From Stramenopiles sp. TOSAG23-2 (taxonomy: Eukaryota), in NCBI GenBank assembly GCA_900128395.1, contig LT649336.1, positions 1-36,528 on the forward strand: DNA of 36,528 nucleotides, given 5' to 3'. The first letter of the stretch is position 1; every line of letters starts with the position of its first letter. The notes beneath the pieces are model-generated. The model was not told the DNA's origin. It saw nothing but the letters and a program-made list of their open reading frames with translations, and did no database searches. Shown here piece after piece: positions 1,198 through 36,528 of this stretch. Both the position numbers and the translations under genes were made by a program.

Positions 1198-2058
1198 AAA
1201 ATGGATGAAAAATAAGTATGTATACCTCTATATTTATGTTGTTATCATGATACACTCGGTCCAACCAAAAAGTTTTATTGGCGCGTGCGTGCGCTCGTCT
1301 GTGTACTTTTGTGCCAGTGTGCAGAGAGATACATGTGTTGATATAGGTGCTGTGTGTGATTTTAAAAAAATTGACTTATAAATAACTGTACTAAACATCG
1401 TACTAATATCTCAGCTATTATATTGTAAAACAACAAAACAACAAGTATCATATATCATAAAATCATAAATCATTAGGTACACATTTATATAGACGAGTAG
1501 ACTACATTTTTGTCCATAATCAAAAATCAAATAATTTCAACATTTCAACGTTCACGTTCAAGTATTTCTGTTACAGGCCATGATGGTACTTCACTGCTAT
1601 TTTACATTTATTTATCAATGTAATAGACTAAATGAAGACATATAATACTGTAATGTATAGATAGAGAGAGTGAGAAACATTCCATATATACATATATTAT
1701 ATACATTCTATGATACAAACATCTAGATATATACATATATAACGGTATAGTTATACATACATTATATCTCTCTAATCTGTAAAGTATACAACAGCAACCA
1801 AAACAAATCATAAGAGATTGATTGAATAACAATCATTGGTAAACTTTTTTCTTTTTATCAACATTTATTTTTGATATTCCCAATTCATCGAAACTAACTA
1901 CAAACCGTTAATTTAAAATATATAATATATATATCCTCCAACTGAATATATTGAAAACAAAACAAATATTGTTAAATAATACATCAAAATTGTTTCATAA
2001 AGCATACATAATTTAAGAAAAAGGAGGTATTGAATATATAAATATAAATATATACATA

Positions 2059-4377
2059 ATGAATAAATATGAAGTATTAGGTATCGTTGGTGAAGGGGCA
2101 TATGGTGTTGTGTTAAAATGTCGTAACAAAGATAATAGTGAAATCGTTGCTATTAAGAAATTTAAAGAAAGTGAAGACGATGAAATTGTAAGAAAAACTA
2201 CATTAAGAGAAGTAAAAGTGCTAAGGATGCTCCGGCAACGAAACATTGTGCACTTGATGGAAGCGTTTCGCCGGAAAGGTAAATTATACCTCGTGTTTGA
2301 ATACGTTGAGAAGAATTTATTAGAAGTATTGGAAGAAAAACCAAATGGTTTACCAAGTGACTTAGTTCGACGTTATGTTTATCAGCTATGTCGTGCTATT
2401 AATTTTTGTCATCAAAATAATGTTATCCATCGTGATATTAAACCAGAAAATTTATTAGTAAACCCGGATCATACATTAAAGTTATGTGACTTCGGTTTTG
2501 CGCGTACTGTGGCAAATAAAGGGCAACAATTAACCGATTATGTTGCAACTCGTTGGTACCGAGCACCTGAACTTTTATTAGGCTCAACAAACTATGACAA
2601 AACTGTTGATTTATGGGCGGTTGGTTGCATTATGGGTGAATTGGTCGATGGACAACCAATGTTTCCAGGTGAAAGTGAGATTGATCAATTGTACATCATA
2701 CAAAAAGTGTTAGGACCATTGACATCTGATCAAACAGAAATGTTTTTGAGAAATCCACGTTTTTTAGGTTTGAAATTTCCAGATATGTCACGACCAGAAA
2801 CATTGCAACGAAAATATGTTGGTAAATTAACGAAAAAAGCATATGGTATGATGTCGTTGTTCGTTAACATGAATCCAAAAGACAGGCCAACTGGGGAGAC
2901 GTGTTTGGAGGATCCATATTTCCACGGCTTACGTGAAGAGTACGATAAGAAAGATCGTTTACATAGTGGTAAAATAGGCAAAGGCAGTAGGAGCAGCCGA
3001 CCAAGTAGCAGGAACAAAAGAGACGATGATCGCGAAAATGATCGTTATGGTAATCGTCATCGCGATCGTGATGGTAGACGCAATGATTCACGCACTGGTT
3101 CTCGTGGTAGCAATAGCGGTGATCGAGGATATGGACATGGTCGCGATAGCAGACATGGTGGCGGAAGAGATAGTGATCGCGATGATCGTGATCGTGATAG
3201 TAGGGACTATCGTGAGAACAGGCGAAGGGAACGAGATAGTCGTGATTCTCGGGATAGGGAAAGAAGAGATCGTGATAGGGATTCTCGCTCGTACCGTGAT
3301 CGAGATGATGATAGTAGGAGCTCCAGAAGCTCAAGGCATAAAAGTGATCGTGATAGGGATTACGACCGTGGAAGCGATCGATCCTCTCCTCCGCCATCCC
3401 CTACTCCATCCAATAGATCTAGTTCAAGAGCACGTGTCAGCACGAAAAATATTGGGAAAAATCTTGGAAAAGGAAGTAAAAAATCAACTGGTGTTTCCTT
3501 ATTAAATGTACCTGCGAATTACGGTCGAAGTACGCAAGGAACGAAAGCATCGAGAATAAGCCGTAATGAAAATTTTCCAAGTCGACGCAAAGGCGTCTCT
3601 CCACCAATAACGCCACCATTGGGCAGCAATGCTAGTGGTAAGGGTTATAAAGTTAGCCACAGCCGTAATAAACGTGTTGATAGTCGCCAATCGCGTAAAG
3701 AACAGGAAAAGGAGCAAAGGCGAAAAGATCGTCGCAGGCGTGATGAAGAGAGAAAACATCGTAAAGCACGGGAACGTGATTCTGATTATGATCATGATTA
3801 TAACCACCATTCCAGTAGAAGAAGCAATCGGGATGATAGAGATCATCACCACCATCGAAGTAGTAATTATGATCGCCATGATGACGATGACAGCAGTTAC
3901 GATTCAAGGAGCCATGGACGACGTGGGCCAAATTCAAGACAAGGAGATGATTATCATTATGATAATCGTAGCAATTCCAGACGTGATCGATCGCCACGTG
4001 ATAATGGATATAGTAGTAGAAATAGTAAAAGCAAATATGGTTCAAAGAAATCTAGTAAACGCAATAATGATCGCCGTGGTGGTAGAGACAGCCATAGAGA
4101 TAATGATCGTGATCATCGTAAATCTTCGAGAGGAAAAGGCTCATCAAGACGTGAGGAAAAGAAAGAACAAGATGAGCCAGAGCGATACTTGCCACGTATG
4201 CGTGACGATGATAGTGAACATGGTAGTCAAGCTGGTGAATTTAATAGTAGTGAATATTATGTACCACCTATTCCTAGTTTTAAAGATGTTCATTCTCCAG
4301 GAACCCATAGAGGTGGTGGTAGTAAAAAAGATTCTTTCGCACCATTAGGATTTAGTCGTTTTGGCAATAAGTATTGA
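2059..4377 (+). CDS. CDKL5: Cyclin-dependent kinase-like kinase (CDKL5/LF5-like) with a long R/D/S-rich tail
   Basis: [32 protein letters not shown] helix [12 protein letters not shown] and [13 protein letters not shown] (TxY) are typical CDKL motifs. Confidence 0.9.
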
Positions 4378-14713: not shown

Positions 14714-17700
14714 TTAGCACCATAAATTTAAACCATGCCATGCTCTGTAATGCACTCTATCATCAGTTGCTAATATCATCAATTGTTTGATTTGTTCTTT
14801 TACCTTTTTATTTATATCGTCTTCATTATTATTATTATTATTCATATTATCATTCTCATTTTTCTTATTATTGATTTTATACTCTTTTTCCAATCCTTTG
14901 ACAAAATTTTTTAAGTAATTTATGTTTGCTGGTACACATCGTTTGTTGGAATTAAGAGTATCATACAAAATAGAAAATGGTGACTCCATTGCAATTTTTC
15001 TCTCTACAAATTGTAAACAGGTTTTGTTTTGTGTATTAAGCTTCAGACTTTGAAAGCTTTGCACTAAATTGCTGGAGGATTTTTGACGCCATTCTAATAT
15101 TGGATCAGCAAGATACGACCTCATGGAACTTAATAGTAACGATTTCTCACTAATCATTGCTTTCATAACCGTGCACATATGTGCTTCCAACGCAGCATTA
15201 CGGTTGGGATGGGGTGCCATTAAATGAACCATCTGTTTTGAATGTCTAAATGGTATTAACTCAGGAACAGGCAAAAGAAATGTTGCAGAACCAAAGGTAT
15301 GTCCAAAATCAATTGGTATAAGTTCGCAATCACTTTTGCGTAATAAACAATTGCCTAAATGGCGATCGCCAATTCCCAATAAATATGTTGCGATATTTAT
15401 AACCGCTCGTGATGATATAATTTTGCTACGTAGAGTTACAAATGTTTCAGCTGTAGATGCTATCGAACGTAAATAATTTCTAAAGCGCAAATTGTTAAAT
15501 GTTGCCGTCGTCTCTTTATATTTACTACGAATTTTTTCTTCTCCTCTGGTACTTGCAGCATCTTTGTATATTTTATCATAAGCATCAGAACCAGATTTAT
15601 TGCCATGTTCTTTTATGAATTGGGCAATAGTGTCTCTATTTACATATGCTTCTTTATTTTTTTTTTCTGGGCCGTATGTATCAGATAGCGTGCATGTACC
15701 ATCAACCCATTCGATTAGCCCCGCTGTCATCGTAATAGGTACTACCGCGAATGTATTTACTTTCATATTATGCTTTCTACAATCTGGTTTTGAACGGAAA
15801 ATGCTATTCATTGCTTCAAAGACTTGTTGCACGCGCTGATCATTTCTTAAATCCTCGTCGGACTTGGCTAAAAAACGATATTCAACTGAATCGCTTCCAT
15901 AAAATGTTAAACGCTTTGGTGCGCGCATCGATGATAAAATTAACATTGATTCTTCAACATACGCAATTGCAGCATGCCCATTTGGTAATGGCATGCTTTT
16001 CGTATTACGGTATTGTCCTGGAATCTCAATATTAGAATGTAACAATGTCAATAAATATGGACTTTCTATTCTCATTTTTTGCCCTTTATATATGTCTGCA
16101 TACTTGTTTGTCATGATTGCCTTTTTATTTCTAATAATTTTCATTTTCTTGTACTTCGGATCAATTGGTGCTTTTCTTTGAGCAATTTCAATGATAGCAT
16201 CCGCAAATTGAGTCAAATTTGGTACTTTTTGAAATATTCGTTTTAACGGTACAACAAATATCGTATCGGAATCAGATAGATTCATACTTTCTTTTGCAAT
16301 GCGAAAATCGTAATAAACAGCCTGTGGGTATTTCTCTGCAACATTAATAATTATATCTTTCAATGCCATTCGCATACTGTGATTTTCTTTAAAAAATGCC
16401 ATCATTAATGGAATAAAACTTAAAAATTTCCAAGGTTCAACTTGATATTTTTTTGCTTGAGACGAGAAATACGAGCAAATTTTCATATTGCTATCTGGAT
16501 GTGCCATTAAGCTTAAAACTTTTGAAAAACGTTCTGATGCAACAATACTGCCCAATTTCATTGCATGCAATAAATTGTCTATGAATTTAGTGCTCAAATC
16601 ATAAAACTGTGCTTTGTGAAATTTCACCTCATCGGCATTCTCCTTGGTGCTGTTGTTGCTGCTGCTGCTCCTACCATTACTGTTATTACTCTTCTTTTCT
16701 AAATTATCCAACAACTTTTCATCAAATAATGCTAATGCACAGTATCCTGATGGACCGCCAGCCTGTGTATATGCAGTCCTTGCATTGTTACAAATATCAT
16801 GAATTATCATGTCATTGTATCCTTTAGACGTATCTTCATTTTGTTTTAAAAAATCTTCTAGATGTATATTCATTTTCTTTGAAAATATATTACCTTGCAA
16901 AATATAAAATTTCGCTTTTGTTGTTTCACTTTCTTGATCCAACAGTTTACTTATTTTCAAATCTTCTAAAATTGAGTTTGCTTTATTCAGCGCAGGTATA
17001 CTTTTATCATCTACTAAGTAGAAATATCGAGCGGTTATATAACCATCCTTAAAAGTTTTTTTAAGTTGGCTGTCCTTTCTAATTTTGCTTGCTGCGACGA
17101 TACTATTTCTTGCTTTCATCTTATTATTTTGAAGGAATGATCCTTCTGCAAGACGATATAGACAGCTCATTCTCGCCTCGTCCTTTCTATTGCTTTCTGG
17201 TATTGTATGAATACAAGCCATACGAGTCTGGTGTAAATCATCCCACGTTTTGACTGAATCGTATCTATGGGAAGGCCAACTTTTCTCCCAACTAGTTACT
17301 AGACGGTCAAAATCATCATAACCAGCATTATCATTTTCCTGTAAGGTTACAAAATCTTGGCATGAAATGAAAAGTGGAAGCATTGACAGAGCATCATGTC
17401 GTGCTGAAAACGAATATACATCTAAGCTTGAATAACGGTTTAGCAACTTATCTATTTCTTCCCAAACAATGCCATGCGCACCTTTCCATTCTCTTCGATT
17501 AACTTTACTGAAAAAGTCTTTTAAAAATAACTTCGTGGATTCATCATCAGATGAGGTATCTGAATTCGCTTGATTTAAAGCATCAGTTTCATATTGCTTT
17601 AATCCATCCATAATTTCCTCTTCTTTTAAAGTCTCGTAAATGCTATTTAAACATTCCCATCCATCATTTCCATCATTGGCTAATCTGTCGTTTGCAATTA

Positions 17701-20700
17701 TGTTTTCCTCTATAACAACTGCGCCAGCTGCTAAGTTTAGGCTACTTATTGCTTCGTTTTTTATAATTTCCAACTGCTCTATGCTAATATCATCCTTCGT
17801 AGGCCCAGATAATAATGTGAAACAGTTTCGAATGAAAGAGAAATCCCTTTTGTGGATATTATCGGTATTACTTCGTGCTAGAATATTTAGTATAGAATGA
17901 TAACCTTCATCCTTCAAGGCATACAAAAATATGCTATTCGCAGCCATATTAGCAAGCTTCTTATCAAATATGAATAAATTCAATAAAGGATCTATTAAAT
18001 CTTTGTATTTCAATTTAGTATCTGGTAGCTCGCCAATCCTGTAACTTCGATATAGTACCTTTCGTTTACTTTCCTTCTCGTACTTTCTCCGTTTGCTTCT
18101 TGAATACGGCATAGCGAAAGAGCCATTATTAGGATCCATTTTTCTTTTACGGTAAAGCTGTATTCCAAAGTTTTGTGATGCTAATTGTGTAGAAGCTCCG
18201 CTACTATTGGCTCCACCATCTTCGGACTGGGTTAGACTAAATAACATGTCACCGTCATTTTGTGTTGCCATTACCATATCGCCATAATTGCTGTTGTTGT
18301 TACTAGTGGCAGTTGACAAAGACTGAGAAGCCCAATTATCATCTATATCCATATTTGTCGATTGAGAAGTGGACGAAGGTATTATCATTGAGGATACCAT
18401 TGATGAAAATGCAGGTTCCATATACAAGGATTGCGTCATGTCAAATCCGTTTCCACTTCCCGCATTTATTTTTAAGTCTGTGAAATCACACTTGTGTATC
18501 TCTTTATTGCATCTTGGTAAGAATGAATTTTGACGATAATCAGCACCATTCTTTACCAAACAGAGCATTAAATAACTGGACAACTGAGAATGAAAGTCTT
18601 CCATATCTTCTCTGATAATATTTGGATTTAACAATGACAAAGCACGGTTGACACTACTTTTTTGTGGTAGAATTTCATTCCAGTATGATAGTAAACAATC
18701 TTTTACAACTCTATAACGATTTTTCAATCCTAATAGGAGAATGTCCCTCAAATATAGCGTACCTTTATCAAAGTATTGTAATTTAGCATCATCATCTGTT
18801 AGCATTGTTGCGGTGGTTGTACTCGTTGTAGTTGTAGTTACCGGTGTTACAACATTTTCCCTATTTTTTGCAACCAATCGTCGATCCATCGATATGCATA
18901 GCTCATAAAACAGTATACAAATATCAGGATTTTCATTAGTAATATATGCCATTGTAAAATTTGTATTTGTAATCACTGTAGTAGATGATTCTTTGTTAAT
19001 TTTAATTGAAACAAATGTTGATTTTGGCCATTCCTCTATCGGCTTTTTCTCAATCCACAATGTCATTATCTCTAATAAAAACCTTTTAGTTTTTTGATTA
19101 TCTTGTGAAGCTAGCATATCAAATGCTGTTTCCAAGTGCTCAAAACATAATGTTACAAGATCTACCGATACCTCCTCCCATGTCAGCATTTTGTGCGTAA
19201 TTTCTAACGCCAACGCCACGCTGTCGCTATCCAATAGCGACAAACGACCCAAAAAATTACTGAAGAAATCGCGGCTATTGCATAGGCGTGGGCCCAAATG
19301 CAGCGCCACTTGAAGCAGCTTTTTTGTTTCTGCCTTATTGTGAGGATTAAATTTGGTTTGTAACTTCATCCTTACTACATCATAGAATGCCTTGCCTAAA
19401 ATTTCATCTTCCTTCGATTCTTGTGCAATTGTACATATAAATCTAGAAGCATTAAACCGTATATCAATATATTTAGCTTCAAAGACCTTATTTCTAATAC
19501 CATGAACTTTGTCATATAAGAACGTGTCCTTATCCATGATGCTACTAATTTTCTCCCAATTCCAAGGTATAAATTCGTTAATAATACAATATATAGCAAG
19601 CGCCAGAGCTTGTAATTGTGACGCCCATCGCACATTGCTTTTTCTGTTTGATTCTTCCATCCACTTAAAAAGCCAATGGGAGTTATTACAAATTGCATTA
19701 CAGCCTACCATGTAAATATCAAAAATTAGCAACGTGTCGACAGATAGTATTTGAGAATTCATTTCTTGAAACCAATGCTTAAACAGTATTTTAAAATGAT
19801 CGAGTGCTTTTGACTTAATGACACCTTTCGTATATGCTAATACCTTGATCCAGTTATTGAAAAACGTCTTCAACTTGGACAACATCGACAAATCCGCTCT
19901 ACCACTATTTGCTACGTTCTTCATCATTACATCGCCGTGATCATCATGCCAGTCAGCTAATATTGATGTCATCCTTTTAAAAAAGTCTTGAAAGCGATCA
20001 TCAAACAGTCGTGTGTCGGCACTATAATCAACTAAAGTTGATATGCAAAATGCTTCCCATTCTGTTGAAAATGGTTTAAAGTACTCAGGCATTTCACTGA
20101 TTAAATGTAAAATAAAAATTTTCAAGCACAATGGTGTTTCGGTTGCATTCGTCCCAATATCTAGAAGGATTTTCATAAATTCTGGTTGAGGTTTGTCAGC
20201 AACCCTTATCCACATTTGTTGTTCTTCGTCAAATGTAGCCCAAGCGTTATATTCATAATTAGGTTCTGGATTTTTATTTTGATTCCAAAGATACTCAAAT
20301 ATACTACAAGTAGTAGTAACACAATCTGCATTAGCATTCCTCCAGTCTTGTGATGGGTACGGAACATCTACTATTAAATTTTTCCAATGCATCAAACTAT
20401 TGTCCGCTTTTTTGCTTTTGCTATTAATTAAATTTACTTGAGTTTGCATTTTCCTTTGTGTTTTAATAGCACAATGGCACAAACACAAGAAAGCAGCAAC
20501 TTTGCAAGAATGGTCAACACTGGGATCTTGGTGCAATATAATTTTCTTCGATTGAAGAATGATATGCATCGTTAACGCAGTGTCTTTTCCATCAGCAAAC
20601 CTTTTGCCGAGATGCGACTTACCTGTACCGTAACCTTGAACTAACTCGACGATTTGATTCTTAATTTCCTTATCATCTAATCGCTGGTATAAAATTTGTA

Positions 20701-23700
20701 GTAAAGAAAATGAATATTTAATGAAACTGGAATTTACGTTTCCAACTTTTGATGCATCTGACAGAGGAAGAAGCCAATCAAAAAGAGGCTGATTACCCGG
20801 TAAGCTCTTATAACCGGTGCGAAATATGTTTGAAATAATATCTTTTTGACAATGCAGCAAATATGGAATGCACACTTTTTTTAGAACCATCTCCTTTAAA
20901 TCCTCGCCATACAACTTCAAATTATTATTAAATAGAATTGAAGTCGAGAGCTCCATGATACTGGAGCGTAATCGTACAACCATATCAGGAGCAGGATCCT
21001 TCGCATATCTTGTAATAATCTTTTTAAGCATTTGATCAATTTTTTCACGCAACAAATGGTCTGGGTGTAGAATTTTCCTACACAAAATTGAAAAATATTC
21101 ATGGCAAAAAATACCACCAACATTTAAAACTAGAAGTCCGACTTCAACAGCTTTGCAATTTTCACGCTCGTCGCTCGATCCAGCATCTACGACTGAACTT
21201 GGGCCTGGGAAGTGGTATCTGAAAATTCTTTTTTTTAATATTTCACATGTTATTGCTGAACATTTTTTTGCGTCTCTTCGTTCTATCGTACTAGACGATT
21301 TTAGAAGTGTACCAGAAAGTCTGAAAGCCTCCATTTTCAATTCAAATGGTGGTTGATCACCAACATCCATTAACAAAAAGTGTAATAAATCCAAAAGGAA
21401 TGAATCTGTACGTTCATTGCTGACATACTTTTCACTTTCAATTATTGGTATTAAAATTTGTAAAAATGAAATCAAAGTTTGCAATATTGGATTAACTCCA
21501 TTCATAACGAAATTACTTTGAGAGTTACTGTTTCCATTACTTTGAAGTTGCGATCCCCAAAGACGATTTTGCTCTAAGAAATAATCATTAAATGCTTCGA
21601 TTAGTTGATCAAACGATAAAATTTCCGTCGTATTATACTTTTTATTGTATAAAATAAAACGAATAATAATTTTTCTTAACAAATGAAGAATGCGAGATGA
21701 TTGAAAAGCAAAACGGAACATATCCTTGGAGATGCTTATCCAAACGTTTGGCTGCATAAAAAACGATGTTATGGCTCCAATTATTGAGTTATCGTGACTT
21801 TTATTCTTGTCATTGATATTTTGCTGAAGATTTTCTGACATAGAAAGTATGTAACTCAAAAAGCTTGATTTTTCAATCATATACAATACATCCTTTGGCT
21901 CTAAGTGTATTTTATTAAAATTGAACAGAAAAAAAACAACGCATTCGTAAAAGTCCATCAGTAATGGGGATAAATTTCTTTCTGCAACAAGTTTTAATTC
22001 ATTTATGATGAGATTGCAAAACTTGTTAATGCAAGTATTGTAACGATCGTCGTTCGAAAAAATTAATTTTAAGACGCCATGTTTATTAGACAAGGTCAAG
22101 CCATTCAAAATTAACTTCTTCGATTTCAAAGTATATTTTACGTTTCCTTCCATATCCAGACCATCTCGAGTAACTCTCAAAGTCTCATCAATTTCATTAT
22201 AAATTAAATCTAGTTTCTTCACAACATTAATAGAATCAAAATCACTGCTACATAATGTCGATTTATGTTCCTAATATAAATTATAATTTCAGGTTAGTCA
22301 TTAAACTTAATTTAGTAGTGGAAATATATATGTTTATACATAAGGTCAAGAATTTCATGAATATTGGCTCAGAAACATATGTTATAGACGAATCCCATCT
22401 TTGTTTTACTTTCGATATCAAGGACGAACCTTTATCTCGGTCATGGATCATGTAAGATCCGAACAAAGATCAAATAAAACTCTGGTAATTAGTGACAACG
22501 TTTTCACCTTTTTTTTTTTTAGCATAAAAAATATATACCAAAACATAAGAAAAAAGACAAAAAAACTGAATTTCCACCTTTTGCATAATTAAATATCATA
22601 CAATGATGTATTGCATCCGGAAGGATACAAAATAAAAACCAAGTTAGGGTTAACAGTACCAACTTTGCCTTGCAAAGCCATACTACAACGGTAAAACGTC
22701 GGTCTAAAAACATATTGTTGTATCATCACAGCCAAACAGAAATCATATTGTCTTCAAAGATTTTAAAGTGTTTCAGATTTACATACCCCGCTAGCAATTG
22801 TAAACAACGTTTTACATGCTTCCTCTTGTAACGTTTCGTGAGGAACTTGCGCTTCATTTGAAATTGTGGTTGGATAAAAAAGTGCTGCAATTAATAATGG
22901 CACCACACCCTTTAACAAATCTCCGGCGTGTTTTGGATTTATGGTATTATTAGAGAAAGAAGCTAGAGCTTCCTTGTCTTGAAATAGATTATCAATGAAT
23001 TTGAACAATTCGCAAATCAATGTACCAGGCAATATTGTAGTGTTTGCTGTTCTACCAGCAATATTTATCAATTCATAAATATTGTCAATAATATGTGAGA
23101 CTGATGCTCTTGTTGAAACGGAGTCTCCATTAATATGTCGCTTTTTATTTATACTGGAACTTCCACCAATATCATGGTTGTATGATGCTAGGCTGCTCAT
23201 TTTAATCATGTGCTTTTCAATAGCCCAATTATATGCAAATAAAGATCCTTCTAGACCTCTATAATACGATTTCAAATCTCCTACCTGTAAACGATAACGC
23301 AAGCTGTTTTGATTTTCAAACAAATATACAAAGTCCGGCTTCTTTGTTAAACTATATCCAGCTTCAGATTCATATTTTGCTCTGGCTATAGAACTGAACA
23401 ATTTTGAACAAATAACGCGCATTTCTATAGATTGACTAGAGATCTGACATAAAATATATTCCATTAATTGATCCAAATTGTTCATAACTTCCCCTGTATA
23501 ATTGTCCCCACCACTTAGATGTTTGCATATAATCCTCGTAAAGTGTTCAATTATATCGCCCAATGATTTACAATTATCAAATTTATTATCTGTGAAGCTA
23601 TTCTCATTGCTTTTTAAAGCATTTAAAGTGTGGTATATGATATCTAACGAATACTTGCGTATTAGCTCCGGTTCTTCACGAAAATCTCTGTAAAATAAAT

Positions 23701-26700
23701 TGATTGTATTTGCAGCACCAATTTGTTTGTGCGTATTTGGATTTTTCAACATATTGAACAAACGCCGCATTAATGAATCAATCTGCACAGGGTTCGACTC
23801 ATTACTACCGCTGCTGGAACTGCTACTGCTTCCTCTACTTTTACGTGAACGAGAATTGTTTTGTTTTATAGCCCATTTCAAAAATTCCGCTAAAGCTCGT
23901 GTGCTTACATCCTTTAGTGCAGCATCCTTATCGTTGCTTGCTCCAATCACGACACAGTTCAACCACGTAACCGTCTCTGGTGCAGTTTGGTTAGTTTTAC
24001 GTGATTTAGCTCTGGAAAACCAATGGCAAAGTTGCTTTACAAGTGGTTCAAATAAATTTCTTGTAAAATCGTATGAATCTGTTGCTAAACGTAAAATGCA
24101 CGGGAAAACTTTTTCGTATATTTGACACAATTCTGGTTGATTCACCTGTGGTAACATATACAAGATAATAGTATGCAATGCTTCGCATGCAGTTGTTTTA
24201 ATATCATAGTCACCGCTCAGCTCTGCTAATTCAATTATTCGAGGAATAATTTCAGTAAGATCCAATTTATATTTAGCATTTATTTGGTCAAATATCAATT
24301 CAATTTTCAACACATCTTTTGAACTGGTCCATCGTAATCCTTTTGCAATGTCTTTCTCCGATGACCCAACTATGTCATGTACACGTCCACCAATTCTTCC
24401 TAGAAAATTCAGGATATATGTTCGTAAGCTGTCCCTTCCTTCTGCATTACTTTTACTTGCTTTCTTCGACTCTTGGTGCGCTTCTTCTTCATCTTCTAAT
24501 AAATATTCGTTTAATTTTGGTAAAATAGATGGTAAACATTCATCGAGCTTATCATCAGACAATGTTTGACGCCATTTTTCTAATGCTTTTACAGCAACCC
24601 ATGCCACTGGTCGATAAGAGCGGCCAATAGTTAATGCACTTTGTAAAATGGGGGTTTGAACTTTCAAAAAATATTCCATCATTTGATGCGGAGCGGACAA
24701 TATCATTTTTGCTGCAGAAACAAACAGTTCGTCGCGATATTGTGTAGAACGCCTTTGTATTGTTTCAACGTATGATAAAACAATTTCAAAGCACTTTTCA
24801 CGATCGTCTTTAATCACACTATTCTTATCATTCACATTGCCGCTGTTACTATTATTGCTAAAGAAGTTTCTCATTTGGTTCTTATCATTAAAAAAATTTC
24901 CTTCACTGCATAATTCAAAAAAAATTTGAATGATTTTATAAAAACCACTTACTTCATAATGATCTAGAGATAATGGTATTAGTTTTGTCAGGAATGGGAT
25001 GGCCCATTTCAAACTACATTGCACGTATCTGTTGTACAAGGTATTTGACAGTTTACGTTTTAAAATTTGATTAATTGACGTATAAAATTCAATTAAATTC
25101 AAAAAATGATTATAATCAATTGGATTTTGTGGTTCTTTTAAATGTTTTCGCAACATAAATTGTGTCACTTCATTTTCATTATTAGTAGATTGAGTCAGTG
25201 CCTCATTTTCATCATCCTTGTCCATATCATCTAATTCAGGATCCTTCAGTGCCAAATTGAAACTTTGCAACTTGTTTAATATAGACTTAATTAATGCATT
25301 TATGATACTTTGTGCCACATATAATTCATCTCTGCATGTCCATTTATGAGATGATGACTGTGCAATAATATTTCCTTCACCATTATTGCTGTTATTGCTA
25401 GTACTACGTTCGGATAAAAATATAAATGGTTCACTTAATGCATAAATTAAAATTTCACTCATAAATTTCGAGTATACATCAGATAATTTGAAATTTACGA
25501 AGGAATCCTCAACCTTATTACTGTTCATATCATAAGTGATTCTTTGTAATGCTTCAACTTTGTACATTGACATATTCATACACTCTACAACAATACTGTC
25601 TAAAGTTGCCAGGAAAGTTTCATTATTTTTCGTCGTAGCATCCATTAAATGAACCATTTCTTTAGCAAAATTTATACGATCACTATCTTTGTATCTTTTT
25701 TCCCATGTCTGGTAATAGTTATGGACGACATGGCGTAAAACTTTGCTCAACGGATCGTACAATGCAGCATCAAGACTCTCTTCCGGCATGTAGTATATTA
25801 TGGATGAACATGCAGATATCATTGCTTGTTCATCACTTCCTTTTGCATAAATTTCACTATACCCATTTGAGTAATAATTTGCCGCACTATTGCGCGATGT
25901 TAAAATATTGGACATGTAATTTTTGAGCAATTTATTAATAATTATGTCCTTCAGCTCTTGCGTTGAATCATTAAATTTTGCTTTCATTGCGCCAGCAAAA
26001 TCTCCAATGATATAAATACCAAGTTCTTGCGTTTTGCGACTTTTATCTTGTAAAAGATTCATTGTAGACTTCATAACCAGTTGGAATATAATATCATATC
26101 TTTTCATATCTTCACTATTGGCAACAATAGTAGTGTTTCTCTCTGAAGTAGTGGTAGTTGTATCCATTTCCATCATCATCATCATCATCATGCTATTATT
26201 GTTACTACTACTACTACTACTGCTATTATTGTTGTTGTTATTGTCATTATTTATCTTTTCGTTGTGAAAATTATATATTTCATTATTAAATACACGTATG
26301 ACAGCACGTAAACCAAATATTACAAATTCACGTAGTGTTTTTTTATCTTTACTTAAAAATATAGTTAATAGGAGACGATATATTTTTTCACCATTTTTAA
26401 TAATCCTTTTTGAAAATAAATGAGAATGTTTTGAAATAAATTCAATACCAGCTTTTGGTACGCTATAACGTTTTAAATCTTGACGAACATAAATGGTTTT
26501 TTCGTATATGCAAGAAAATAAATCATTCATTTCATTTTTTTTGCTGAAAATATCAGAAATACATGTACCATCTTTAAATTTATCGATTATTTCAATAGCA
26601 GCACTTAATCCATTAATAGCTCCTGAAATGATATTAGCTTTCCCATCGCCACCTTCTTTAGCATATTCACCAGTTAATCCGTTCAATAACGTACGATATA

Positions 26701-27400
26701 TTCCATCCCTATTGTTTTTCAATTCGAGTGGATAAACAGAATATAAACGACCCAGTAATTCCAATGCGGAACCTTTCAATACCCCATACGCTTTTGCACC
26801 TTTTCCAATGAGATTTAGTGTCATATCATAAAGCGGTCGTGACTGTCTACCGACATTATTAGTGAAAAAACCCACCTTGAACTGTGACGCCGTCACCAGC
26901 GGTGTTCCGTTATCATCCAATTCACTTGGTGAAGCTTTTAATATTTCAAACAACAGGTTAAATACAGGGGTGCGTACAGTTGCTGATTTATTTTCACGCA
27001 TTAAAACTTGATAAGATACCTCGATAATTTTATTGAGAAAAGTTTTATATTGTGCAAGATTATTGGTATCAGCTTTGAACAATGACGTAAGTTGAACGAC
27101 AACTTCTTTTCTAGCTTCATTCATTTCCTTATCTCCATTTCTTCGATTAATGGAAGCTTTATTCAAAAAGGTAAGGATATCCGGTGGATCATCAGAACAG
27201 AGTAAGAGTGAGATAGCACGTGTATGCAAAGACCTATTACTTTGAATTGTTTCTGTTTTACTAATGTTGAAAGCACTCTCCACTAATTGTTTTGGGCTAG
27301 CTTGCGATGTTTTGATTCCTTTCTCCGCAGAATCTGCAAGTTTTAATAAAACATCTTGAAGTCTTGATATCTCCAAGGAGGAGGTATTCATCGACGTCAT
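14714..27400 (-). CDS. PRKDC: DNA-dependent protein kinase catalytic subunit; exons 27400-22787 and 22270-14714, ~4056 aa
   Basis: PIKK motifs EIPGQY, FLAKSDEDLRNDQR, GIGDRHLGN and [23 protein letters not shown]; DNA-PK-like LYRSYRIGELPD and FEPLVKQLCHWF; FATC-like end. A phase-0 GT-AG intron joins the two track ORFs in frame. Confidence 0.93.
22271..22786 (-). other. Spliceosomal intron of PRKDC (516 nt, phase 0)
   Basis: GGG|GTATGT donor at 22786, branch site TGACTAAC at 22300-22293, TATTAG|GAA acceptor at 22271; joins ...IASG to EHKSTL... in frame. Confidence 0.88.
22364..22735 (-). ncRNA. Intronic box C/D structured RNA (~372 nt); candidate telomerase RNA
   Basis: TTGGC-T-GTGATGA (C box 22729-22723)...CTGA (D box 22372-22369)-GCCAA terminal K-turn; long-range helices; TAACCCTAAC at 22652-22643 directly 3' of a long hairpin. 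Confidence 0.7.
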
Positions 27401-34737: not shown

Positions 34738-34835
34738 TATGAAATCATACAAAATATCATATTTTAGATGGAAATTCACTTTTTCAACTATGAAATCATA
34801 CAAAATATCATATTTTAGATGGAAATTCACTTTTT
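34738..34835. repeat. Tandem duplication, period 51, 47 identical bases
   Basis: tatgaaatcatacaaaatatcatattttagatggaaattcacttttt at 34738-34784 and 34789-34835. Confidence 0.9.
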
Positions 34836-36528
34836 TACATAAATTATAAATATCGTTTTTGGAATATTGAAACCTATCAACAATTTAGTATAATATTTTT
34901 GTACTAAATAGTGTTAGACAAAGCCGACACTACAAGTGAAAACCACCTATCAAGTAGTGTTACAGCTATAGGGTTACGCGTTTTTTTCAACTTTTAACGG
35001 ATATTCAAATATGAAGTAGATACAAGAATATTGATATATTCAGTAAAATTATTACCAAACATATAAAAATTGATCGTGGATACTTATTTTTCTAAAGTTA
35101 TGTATATATATATGTAAAAAACTACCTTTTCTCATTTTCAAATTTTACATTTTTAGTCCATACTGTGTCCATACTAATTTGGAAAAAAATCACCATTTTG
35201 AAAAAAATTCGTTACCTTGTCAGTTTCATTTAAAACATAATTAGATCAAAATATGTATGCACTTCTTTCCTTTAGGGATGTGTTAAGAGATGTGTCTTAT
35301 TTTGAATCAATTCGTAGAAGATTTAGATAGAAAAAATCGACACATTGTATTTCGGTGATATTTCTGATAATTTTTCAATATTTTGGTGATTTCTTGGTCT
35401 ATAACCCTAAACTAACCCGATCTTGAAAATCACATATCGGTGTAAAGCTCGACTTATACGTGATGTATGGACAGGAGAACGGTCGGGGATTGTTTAGGTG
35501 ATCAGTATATAACTTTTAGGTATTGGTTTCAGCTTTGTATATAATGGGAAAGTATAGAAATGGCATTCGTGTGAGTGTATGTTGGTGTTGAGAAATAGAG
35601 TGAGAGGTCCCGTCATGTACGGGTATGACCCCACAATGCTAAGTAGTGCTAGCATCTCTAACCCTAACGTAAATGATCAAAATGCACGATATTTTTAGTA
35701 AACATGGTTTTACTGTTAAACTCCCCAGACCACGACCTACAGACATTATATACGTAATAAATAACGGATATGCAACGTTTCAAAGTCTAATTTTAATATC
35801 TTCAATGAAAGTTTTCAACCTTTCATGATTTTCACCATTTACATGGAAAAGTGCTCTAATACTAACTCCATGCTAACGTACGATTTAAAAAAAAAATTCA
35901 GCACTTTTCTTTAAAAACATAATTATACACGTAAACTCCCAGAGAAAAGTTAAATATATCACCTACGATATAGAATCTACGACATTTTATCAAAATTTTT
36001 TATGTTTTGTGTTAAAAAGGTAGATTTCTAGCTCCATTTAGAATTGTTGTGATTCAAAATCGATTTGGATTTCTAGGCCTTTTTCAGGCACATGGGAATC
36101 CATTACAAAATAGGGTATAGTCAACACAATATATCTCGAGTCAATGAAAATATTAATACAAAAGTAGTACGAGATCTCATTTTTACATATAAAGAGCCAA
36201 ACTTAAGAGTAAGTTGATGACAACTGAGTGCCAGGAACATACTTTACTAATGACGTTTCAATTGCATGTCAAAGTACCCTTACTATGGAATAGGCTTGTA
36301 AAACCTTAATAAAAGTGTCCAAAAATATGCATTTTTTAGTGAAAATTCACTTTGGGTCTAGCGTTTCATGTAAATGTAATATTTATTTTGGTTGGAGTTT
36401 AGAGATACAAGTTATATATATAAAGAAAGGATGTCGAAGTTTATATGACTTCAAAATGTTGGAAATGATGTTTGGAGACGAAATGCAAATTCGATATATC
36501 TGATGAAATTTCTCAATTTTCGTACCCA

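Follow-up and report, generated by a model that had tools for sequence, protein, structure and literature searches.

A candidate telomerase RNA with box C/D termini in the only intron of a stramenopile DNA-PKcs gene

What is a permuted telomere repeat, set directly behind a hairpin, doing inside a protein-coding gene of a stramenopile? The question is raised by contig LT649336.1 of Stramenopiles sp. TOSAG23-2 (assembly GCA_900128395.1), whose 36,528 nucleotides (nt) were analysed as a whole and are here called the window. Telomerase RNAs (TRs) diverge fast and are still unknown for most protist lineages. A first-pass annotation, made from the letters alone, had read a 10-mer and an adjoining hairpin on the minus strand as a telomerase template and its boundary element. 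The 10-mer TAACCCTAAC does run from 22652 to 22643 on the minus strand, as had been given, and its letters bear out that it makes up 1.67 copies of the complement of TTAGGG. Below it is argued that both elements belong to a stable RNA carried in the single intron of a DNA-PKcs gene, and that an intron-processed TR capped by C and D boxes is a credible candidate of an unusual kind, a reading that we hold to be moderately probable.

22643-22652, minus strand: template-like UAACCCUAAC, 1.67 repeats complementary to TTAGGG
22653-22686, minus strand: template-adjacent hairpin, candidate boundary element (from RNAfold and a homologue)

The first step is to ask in what kind of transcript these elements lie. 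On the minus strand two very long open frames, 27493-22763 and 22270-14714 (the latter of 2518 amino acids, aa), share one reading frame, and animal and plant DNA-PKcs queries align to both in tblastn. The first exon matches the Pfam families DNA-PKcs_N (E 3.7e-44) and DNAPKcs_CC1-2 (E 2.8e-36), the second PI3_PI4_kinase (E 2.1e-43) and DNAPKcs_CC5 (E 4.5e-10); tblastn with nine distant DNA-PKcs proteins found nothing credible within 22270-22786. The gene thus delimited has about 4,056 codons and one intron only.

22787-27400, minus strand: DNA-PKcs exon 1 (the ATG at 27400 is the presumed start; the 3' end is set by the splice joint)
22271-22786, minus strand: single DNA-PKcs intron, 516 nt (from spliced RNA contigs)
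14714-22270, minus strand: DNA-PKcs exon 2 with the stop codon, continuing the frame of exon 1

Removal of this intron is documented in X2 and X3, runs from two separate marine metatranscriptome studies, both of which were compared over 21000-24500. Each contains one RNA contig across the splice joint 22269|22786, which skips 516 nt with CT..AC ends, that is GT..AG on the minus strand (depth 3.7 and side 65 in X2, depth 3.2 and side 78 in X3). The expected intron signals can be read by eye, namely GTATGT at 22786-22781, ACTAAC at 22298-22293 (23 nt from the end) and AG at 22272-22271, and since the intron length is 3 x 172, the reading frame is kept. The 10-mer and the hairpin therefore do not lie between genes; they stand in sense orientation inside the sole intron of DNA-PKcs. 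A frame of 54 aa (22589-22753) crosses the site in frame with both large exons, and it was considered as a coding exon; this was rejected because the whole 516 nt is spliced out.

Several observations on the gene itself may be added here. The fourth position of the 5' splice site (22783) is polymorphic, being GTATGT in the window and in the metagenome locus L059 and GTACGT in the locus L003 and in the strain seen in run X22. The encoded protein contains homopolymer runs of N, S, M and T, and its closest full-length relatives in the protein search, animals and one plant, reach only 23-33% identity.

The second step concerns the fate of the intron after splicing. In X2 an intron contig covers 22371-22648 (278 nt, one other letter) at a depth of 85.3, against 3.7 for the spliced exon contig. 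DNA contamination cannot be the source of this 23-fold excess, since the excess is confined to a part of the intron. In X3 two intron contigs, 22366-22539 (depth 4.7) and 22574-22724 (depth 2.0), were found, neither of which reaches a splice site; they stop 2 and 11 nt inside the termini predicted below, and these are ends of contigs, not mapped ends of RNA. Judged from the contigs, the ends of the intron RNA would lie within about 10 nt of these termini, near the C and D boxes and away from the splice sites. The intron is spliced, and the portion bounded by these boxes accumulates far above the messenger RNA (mRNA).

22364-22735, minus strand: box C/D RNA of about 372 nt, telomerase-RNA candidate (termini placed from the C/D motif and the terminal stem)
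22735-22731, minus strand: 5' strand of the terminal stem, UUGGC, followed by a bulged U at 22730; pairs with GCCAA (probabilities 0.73-1.0)
22723-22729, minus strand: C box GUGAUGA, containing the sole UGAUGA in the RNA
22702-22719, minus strand: 5' strand of the inner closing stem; pairs with 22389-22374 (probabilities 0.87-1.0)
22374-22389, minus strand: 3' strand of the inner closing stem; pairs with 22719-22702
22369-22372, minus strand: D box CUGA, the sole CUGA in the RNA
22364-22368, minus strand: 3' strand of the terminal stem, GCCAA, directly after the D box

A C/D kink-turn consists of a stem, a 3-nt bulge and tandem G-A pairs, and the termini match this geometry by eye: a 5-base-pair (bp) stem is followed by a 3-nt bulge (U, G, U) and GAUGA, with CUGA directly before the other strand. 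The terminal stem comprises five Watson-Crick pairs, with one spacer base on its 5' side and none on its 3' side. A scan of both strands of the window for the C/D pattern gave one match only, at the intron RNA. The minimum free energy (MFE) of the 372-nt RNA is -97.8 kcal/mol. A search of the RNA for exact boxes, which degenerate C' and D' boxes would escape, gave no second CUGA or UGAUGA, and the nucleotides on the 5' side of the D box take part in the closing stem; because of these two features the RNA is not a canonical methylation guide. The Rfam library gave no match at gathering score in the whole window and, within 22200-22850 at E values up to 10, six matches that all fall far below gathering.

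Two other classes of RNA were considered for this segment and set aside. A TR of the H/ACA type could be suspected from AGAUAA at 22437 and ACA at 22382. In this class, however, the ACA stands 3 nt from the 3' end, whereas here it is part of the closing stem and the contig goes on for another 15 nt; this reading was dropped because the C/D termini and the closing stem were found, and the intervening fold forms part of a three-way junction. A gene of RNA polymerase III (Pol III) is unlikely, as several tracts of T5-T7 (22638-22526) lie within the abundant contig and would be expected to stop this enzyme. A TATA-like TTTAAAA lies at 22767-22761 on the minus strand, about 30 nt 5' of the predicted RNA start, and an independent start of RNA polymerase II (Pol II) inside the intron may exist.

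Could all of this be chance, that is, an ordinary intron of which a retained or lariat fragment is seen, with structures that have no function? An AT-rich intron should contain homopolymer runs, random sequence often shows the C/D pattern, and shuffles of the hairpin do not set it apart. This explanation, however, leaves the 23-fold excess over mRNA unaccounted for, limited as it is to the part of the intron from the C to the D box. Nor does it fit the inner closing stem, whose 15 bp have a duplex energy of -12.2 kcal/mol that is matched by 3 of 2000 shuffles, the folding of the inner 330 nt (z -3.61), or the existence of a homologue with collinear conserved blocks. We consider it very improbable.

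The third step is the pair of elements from which the question arose. RNAfold predicts a hairpin of 22685-22680 with 22659-22654 (6 bp) and 22678-22672 with 22668-22662 (7 bp), closed by the loop AAG, 13 bp in total and with pair probabilities of 0.61-1.0 within the full-length RNA. The first-pass annotation had described a stem of about 15 bp; the hairpin is there, and the surplus consists of two terminal G-U pairs that RNAfold does not form. Its further statement, that the helix ends one base before the 10-mer, agrees with the prediction, which leaves only U22653 between the two. Structurally, then, a 13-bp hairpin ending 1 nt before the 10-mer is placed as a template-boundary helix would be, and the ten template bases have unpaired probabilities of 0.46-0.86 in the full-length RNA. 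The 10-mer had also been said to share ten of the 11 nt of the vertebrate telomerase template; the arithmetic is right, with U and not C preceding the 10-mer, the vertebrate sequence being taken from general knowledge. At 15 of 4000 random positions of the window the 40-mer upstream reaches a folding energy of -12.0 kcal/mol or lower, and at 9 of 4000 an equally stable helix also ends within 2 nt. As for the 10-mer itself, overall expectation is 0.04-0.07 copies per window; the window holds two (the second at 35659-35668 on the plus strand) against 0.07 expected, and at least two matches were reached by 1 of 100 shuffles of the window.

Is either element conserved? X2 contains, besides the contig described above, a homologue of 376 nt at a depth of 77.7, which matches the window at two places only (at least 90% likeness).

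22633-22656, minus strand: conserved block 1, 24 nt, CUGU followed by the 10-mer and UUGGUUUUUA (homologue with one other letter, unplaced)
22417-22437, minus strand: conserved block 2, 21 nt (homologue with one other letter)

The blocks are collinear and in the same orientation, 230 letters apart in the homologue and 195 in the window. The homologue extends 80 nt 5' of block 1, and the same distance in the window leads to 22736, one base off the predicted 5' end of the RNA. Judging from these letters, the stretch of the RNA that holds the 10-mer is its best-conserved one. The 30 letters of the homologue 5' of block 1 can be aligned by eye with the hairpin of the window: the inner stem is unchanged and the loop different, while in the outer stem one-sided changes turn U-G into U-A and U-A into U-G, and a U-A pair takes the place of a G/G mismatch, while one further base is bulged. 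In run X22 an A>G change at 22665 turns a U-A pair of the hairpin into U-G. Taken together, these changes indicate that the fold of the hairpin persists although the letters of its 3' strand vary, and conservation of the hairpin in a relative, for which the first-pass annotation had asked, is found in this diverged homologue through pair-preserving changes.

Other sources bear on the same point to different degrees. In X22 both exons and intron are covered, unspliced and at 1-2% difference from the window, and the run so behaves like DNA of a related strain; its variants are too few for a comparison of the RNA with the rest of the intron. A metagenome scan with the hairpin pattern gave 64 loci, 62 of which are chance matches and two the same species. 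L003 (99.7% identity) and L059 (99.3%) have an intron identical to that of the window except at 22783, and owing to this near-identity they hold no covariation data; in both, as in X22, the 10-mer is identical, all three being of the same species. Contigs of X21 are 100% identical and possibly come from the source sample, so they were not counted as independent. Parts of the stretch are present in many marine metatranscriptomes: runs X1 and X4-X20 share 0.14-0.20 of the sampled words of 21000-24500, a measure of word sharing and not of contig comparison. Among viral contigs an 18-mer gave three matches, all to one phage coding sequence, and a 21-mer gave none.

Conservation of the block around the 10-mer also bears on the idea that the 10-mer acts at the level of DNA, either as a telomere-like motif bound by protein (a telobox) or as an interstitial telomeric repeat that has degenerated, and is present in the intron RNA by coincidence. 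What speaks for this is that TAACCCTAA is found three times in the window, where about one AACCCTAA is expected, and that two of these copies lie 257 nt apart in a gene-poor part at 35.4-35.7 kb, both after TCT. The intron copy, however, is flanked by CTGT and not TCT, it lies on the sense strand of the RNA, and it is found inside a conserved block of a homologue that has otherwise diverged beyond 90% likeness. The conserved flanks and the adjacent conserved hairpin are not explained either, and we judge a DNA-level motif to be improbable as the account of the intron copy. The two distant copies may be a telomere-like motif bound by protein or an interstitial telomeric remnant. They were looked at in their regions (35398-35415 and 35655-35672, plus strand), where TCT and one variable base precede each, and the first continues as a degenerate telomere-like run, TAACCCTAAACTAACCC.

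The more serious competitor is an orphan intronic box C/D small nucleolar RNA (snoRNA) or small Cajal body RNA (scaRNA) unrelated to telomerase, for instance a chaperone of folding or processing of ribosomal RNA precursors. Its two conserved blocks would bind another RNA or a protein, with no significance attached to the likeness of the 10-mer to a telomere repeat. An origin from an intron, C/D termini and accumulation are all standard features of snoRNAs, the two homologues of similar depth in one run could be paralogues, no pseudoknot was found, and block 1 may have a short partial complementarity to a conserved 18S segment. On the other hand, the RNA would not be a canonical guide, having no C'/D' pair and paired bases next to its D box, and its 372 nt are far above the size range of ordinary C/D snoRNAs. 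It has no Rfam match, which includes the U3, U8 and U14-type models. Above all, an exact 10-nt permutation of a telomere repeat within the best-conserved 24 nt, 3' of a conserved hairpin, would go unexplained. An orphan snoRNA or scaRNA thus seems to us possible though doubtful.

If the RNA is a TR, what else does it contain? Between template and D box the prediction shows the following elements.

22509-22566, minus strand: U7, U6 and A12 tracts, between template and junction
22397-22470, minus strand: predicted three-way junction (pair probabilities 0.71-0.91, a prediction from one sequence)

The junction is composed of a 9-bp closing helix (22470-22462 with 22405-22397) and two hairpins, 22460-22445 and 22439-22413. 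The second of these, its third arm, holds the hairpin of block 2, AAGG-UUCGU-CCUU (22432-22420), a 4-bp stem with a 5-nt loop that sits on a GAUA/GAUA internal loop; its stem has pair probabilities of 0.78-0.90 and its loop is unpaired at 0.93-0.94. The U7, U6 and A12 tracts form U:A helices in the nested MFE structure, and from their composition it is possible that they are strands of a U-A-U triplex or a pseudoknot. A helix that could enclose the core was also predicted (22701-22690 with 22508-22496, 12 bp and one bulge). The X2 contig has a G>A change at 22505, the base that would be its single bulge.

With these parts the following course of events can be proposed. After splicing, the intron would be debranched and trimmed by exonucleases down to a box C/D small nucleolar ribonucleoprotein (snoRNP) core, made up of the terminal stem, the C box GUGAUGA, the D box CUGA and the 15-bp inner stem, which would stabilize the RNA. 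From established snoRNA biology, Snu13, Nop56, Nop58 and fibrillarin would be expected on the kink-turn. The body of the RNA would then act as TR, with UAACCCUAAC (22652-22643) as template: these bases would template GTTAGGGTTA, six nt being copied and four serving for alignment, so that TTAGGG repeats are made. The hairpin one base 5' of the template would halt reverse transcription as a template-adjacent boundary element, and the hairpin of 4 bp and 5-nt loop in the downstream junction would be a second TERT-binding element. Assembly of the snoRNP, use of the template, boundary function and binding of TERT are all inferred. What stands of the original proposal is a stable, structured non-coding RNA on the strand that was named; that its body is a TR and its hairpin a boundary element is suggested by anatomy and conservation. 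The first-pass annotation had lacked the context of the spliced DNA-PKcs intron, the box C/D termini and the second conserved hairpin.

Several points weigh against this interpretation. Intronic C/D RNAs are mostly snoRNAs, and the two homologues, present in one sample at similar depth, could be paralogues, a situation more usual with snoRNAs than with TRs. The template reading presupposes TTAGGG as the organism's own telomere repeat, and if the one mismatch of the homologue within the 24-mer falls inside the 10-mer, this reading is weakened. TAACCCTAA occurs also at 35402 and 35659 on the plus strand, in the gene-poor part and with the TCT flank, and so the motif may have another use. The hairpin, folded as a 51-mer, is ordinary against its own dinucleotide shuffles (z -1.12; 25 of 200 fold equally well), a result in conflict with its rarity against random positions of the window. 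The X2 contig of the window type ends at 22648, within the 10-mer, and among the contigs listed none of this type covers 22649-22735. The C/D pattern alone is frequent, with 0.75 matches per random window and at least one in 48% of windows. No Rfam telomerase family matched, as would be expected for a new lineage. An enumeration of H-type pseudoknots gave no convincing candidate, the sole one being weak (-8.0 kcal/mol) and placed elsewhere than the U and A tracts, and the helix that could enclose the core has pair probabilities of only 0.07-0.38. On its letters the homologue could be either a paralogue or the orthologue of a sister species.

The rest of the window adds to the picture of the organism. 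Exact or near-exact copies of its proteins occur only in metagenome and EukProt sets, and other relatives of them stand at 62-93% identity. Among named organisms, the closest relatives of a CDKL-family kinase (2017-4377, plus strand), which carries a long tail rich in Arg, Asp and Ser, are from oomycetes, a labyrinthulid, pelagophytes, brown algae and one cryptophyte (71-76% in the kinase domain), and its relatives at 92-98% in metagenome sets imply that several close species or strains are present in public data. A feature search with PRP38 led to clusters of Oomycota, Apicomplexa and diatoms. These affinities point, with low certainty, to an uncultured marine protist that is probably stramenopile-like. 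The segment 34200-36528 has no open frame of at least 110 aa and is rich in short repeats. In one of them 47 nt are duplicated exactly in tandem (34738-34784 and 34789-34835), and their core recurs at 36322-36353 as a 75% copy.

What would follow if the candidate were a TR? It would be a third solution of the snoRNP type to TR biogenesis and only the second TR hosted by an intron, and it would join in one molecule three features known separately from distant lineages (nematodes, kinetoplastids, and vertebrates and fungi). The telomerase template and DNA-PKcs, a kinase of end protection and repair, would come from one transcript. The CR4/5-P6.1 module, or a convergent copy of it, would extend outside opisthokonts, and an entry point for finding the TRs of stramenopiles would be at hand: the C/D termini, the template block and the conserved hairpin would serve as anchors for homologues in marine metatranscriptomes, which could show whether the CR4/5-like element is ancient. 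Should the RNA turn out not to be a TR, it would still be a conserved orphan C/D RNA of unusual length, and one that is abundant in ocean samples. That a single TR in the DNA-PKcs gene really joins all three, an intron host, a box C/D cap and a P6.1-type hairpin in a three-way junction, is a tentative proposal, less likely than the broader one. The combination of intron host, C/D cap and P6.1-like hairpin does not appear in the literature searched.

How does the candidate compare with known systems? Like intronic box C/D snoRNAs, it has a C box, a D box and a terminal stem, lies in an intron and accumulates above the mRNA of its host. Its 3' end is placed 69 nt before the branch-site A, a spacing of the kind that suits C/D processing. 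Unlike the guides among these RNAs, it has no C'/D' boxes and no free antisense element beside box D and is about 3-5 times the typical length. Among TRs, that of Trypanosoma brucei is much longer, trans-spliced and not intron-hosted, and a paper on Leishmania names trans-splicing in its title; that of Ustilago maydis comes from an mRNA transcript and not from an intron.

The available portions of the source on T. brucei describe a TR with a C/D box domain in place of H/ACA (PMC8643685). As is proposed for the candidate, its template is single-stranded and has a stem-loop boundary element on the 5' side; a proximal helix lies 3' of the template, and a distal stem-loop is a second activity element, as is proposed here (PMC8643685). 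The two differ in the template, which in T. brucei is a C-rich permutation (CCCUAACCCUA), and in helix IV, which in the same portions is described without a hairpin of the P6.1 type (PMC8643685), and the C/D boxes of the candidate close the whole RNA. The TR of U. maydis is processed from a protein-coding mRNA, a Pol II transcript as here, and the passages of the source at hand report no C/D boxes (PMC9564094). Within stramenopiles, the candidates from Blastocystis are, like plant and ciliate TRs, Pol III transcripts with a type-3 promoter of upstream sequence element (USE) and TATA, according to the available text (PMC8287931). They are also short (PMC8287931) and possibly of the same supergroup, and the present candidate is intron-derived instead. 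In the literature searched, these Pol III-type predictions are the only stramenopile TR candidates, with supplementary tables, which may list more, outside the search.

A template-adjacent helix is a common type of boundary element, as the portions consulted of a comparative source state, and P6.1 is a stem of 4 bp with a loop of 5 nt, described there for opisthokonts only, the eCR4/5 of trypanosomes and echinoderms being without it (PMC4993307). The predicted downstream fold of the candidate resembles the CR4/5 of vertebrates and fungi (PMC4993307) in its order of closing helix, hairpin and then a short hairpin of 4 bp and 5-nt loop, and within the RNA this short hairpin ranks second in conservation. 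Unlike P6.1, its stem would sit on the GAUA/GAUA internal loop and a 3-bp helix, off the junction, and the modelled resemblance is a lead only.

In its mode of origin the candidate would have its counterpart in Caenorhabditis elegans, whose TR is hosted in the sense orientation by an nmy-2 intron and presumably freed by splicing and exonuclease trimming, an intronic location that the source, in its available portions, calls unique among TRs (PMC12921731). This nematode TR carries H/ACA-like motifs and, in the same portions, no convincing C/D motifs, whereas the candidate has C/D boxes; it differs from the candidate also in host gene, in telomere repeat (TTAGGC) and in lineage (PMC12921731). 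What the two share is an intron host in sense orientation and a hairpin upstream of the template (PMC12921731).

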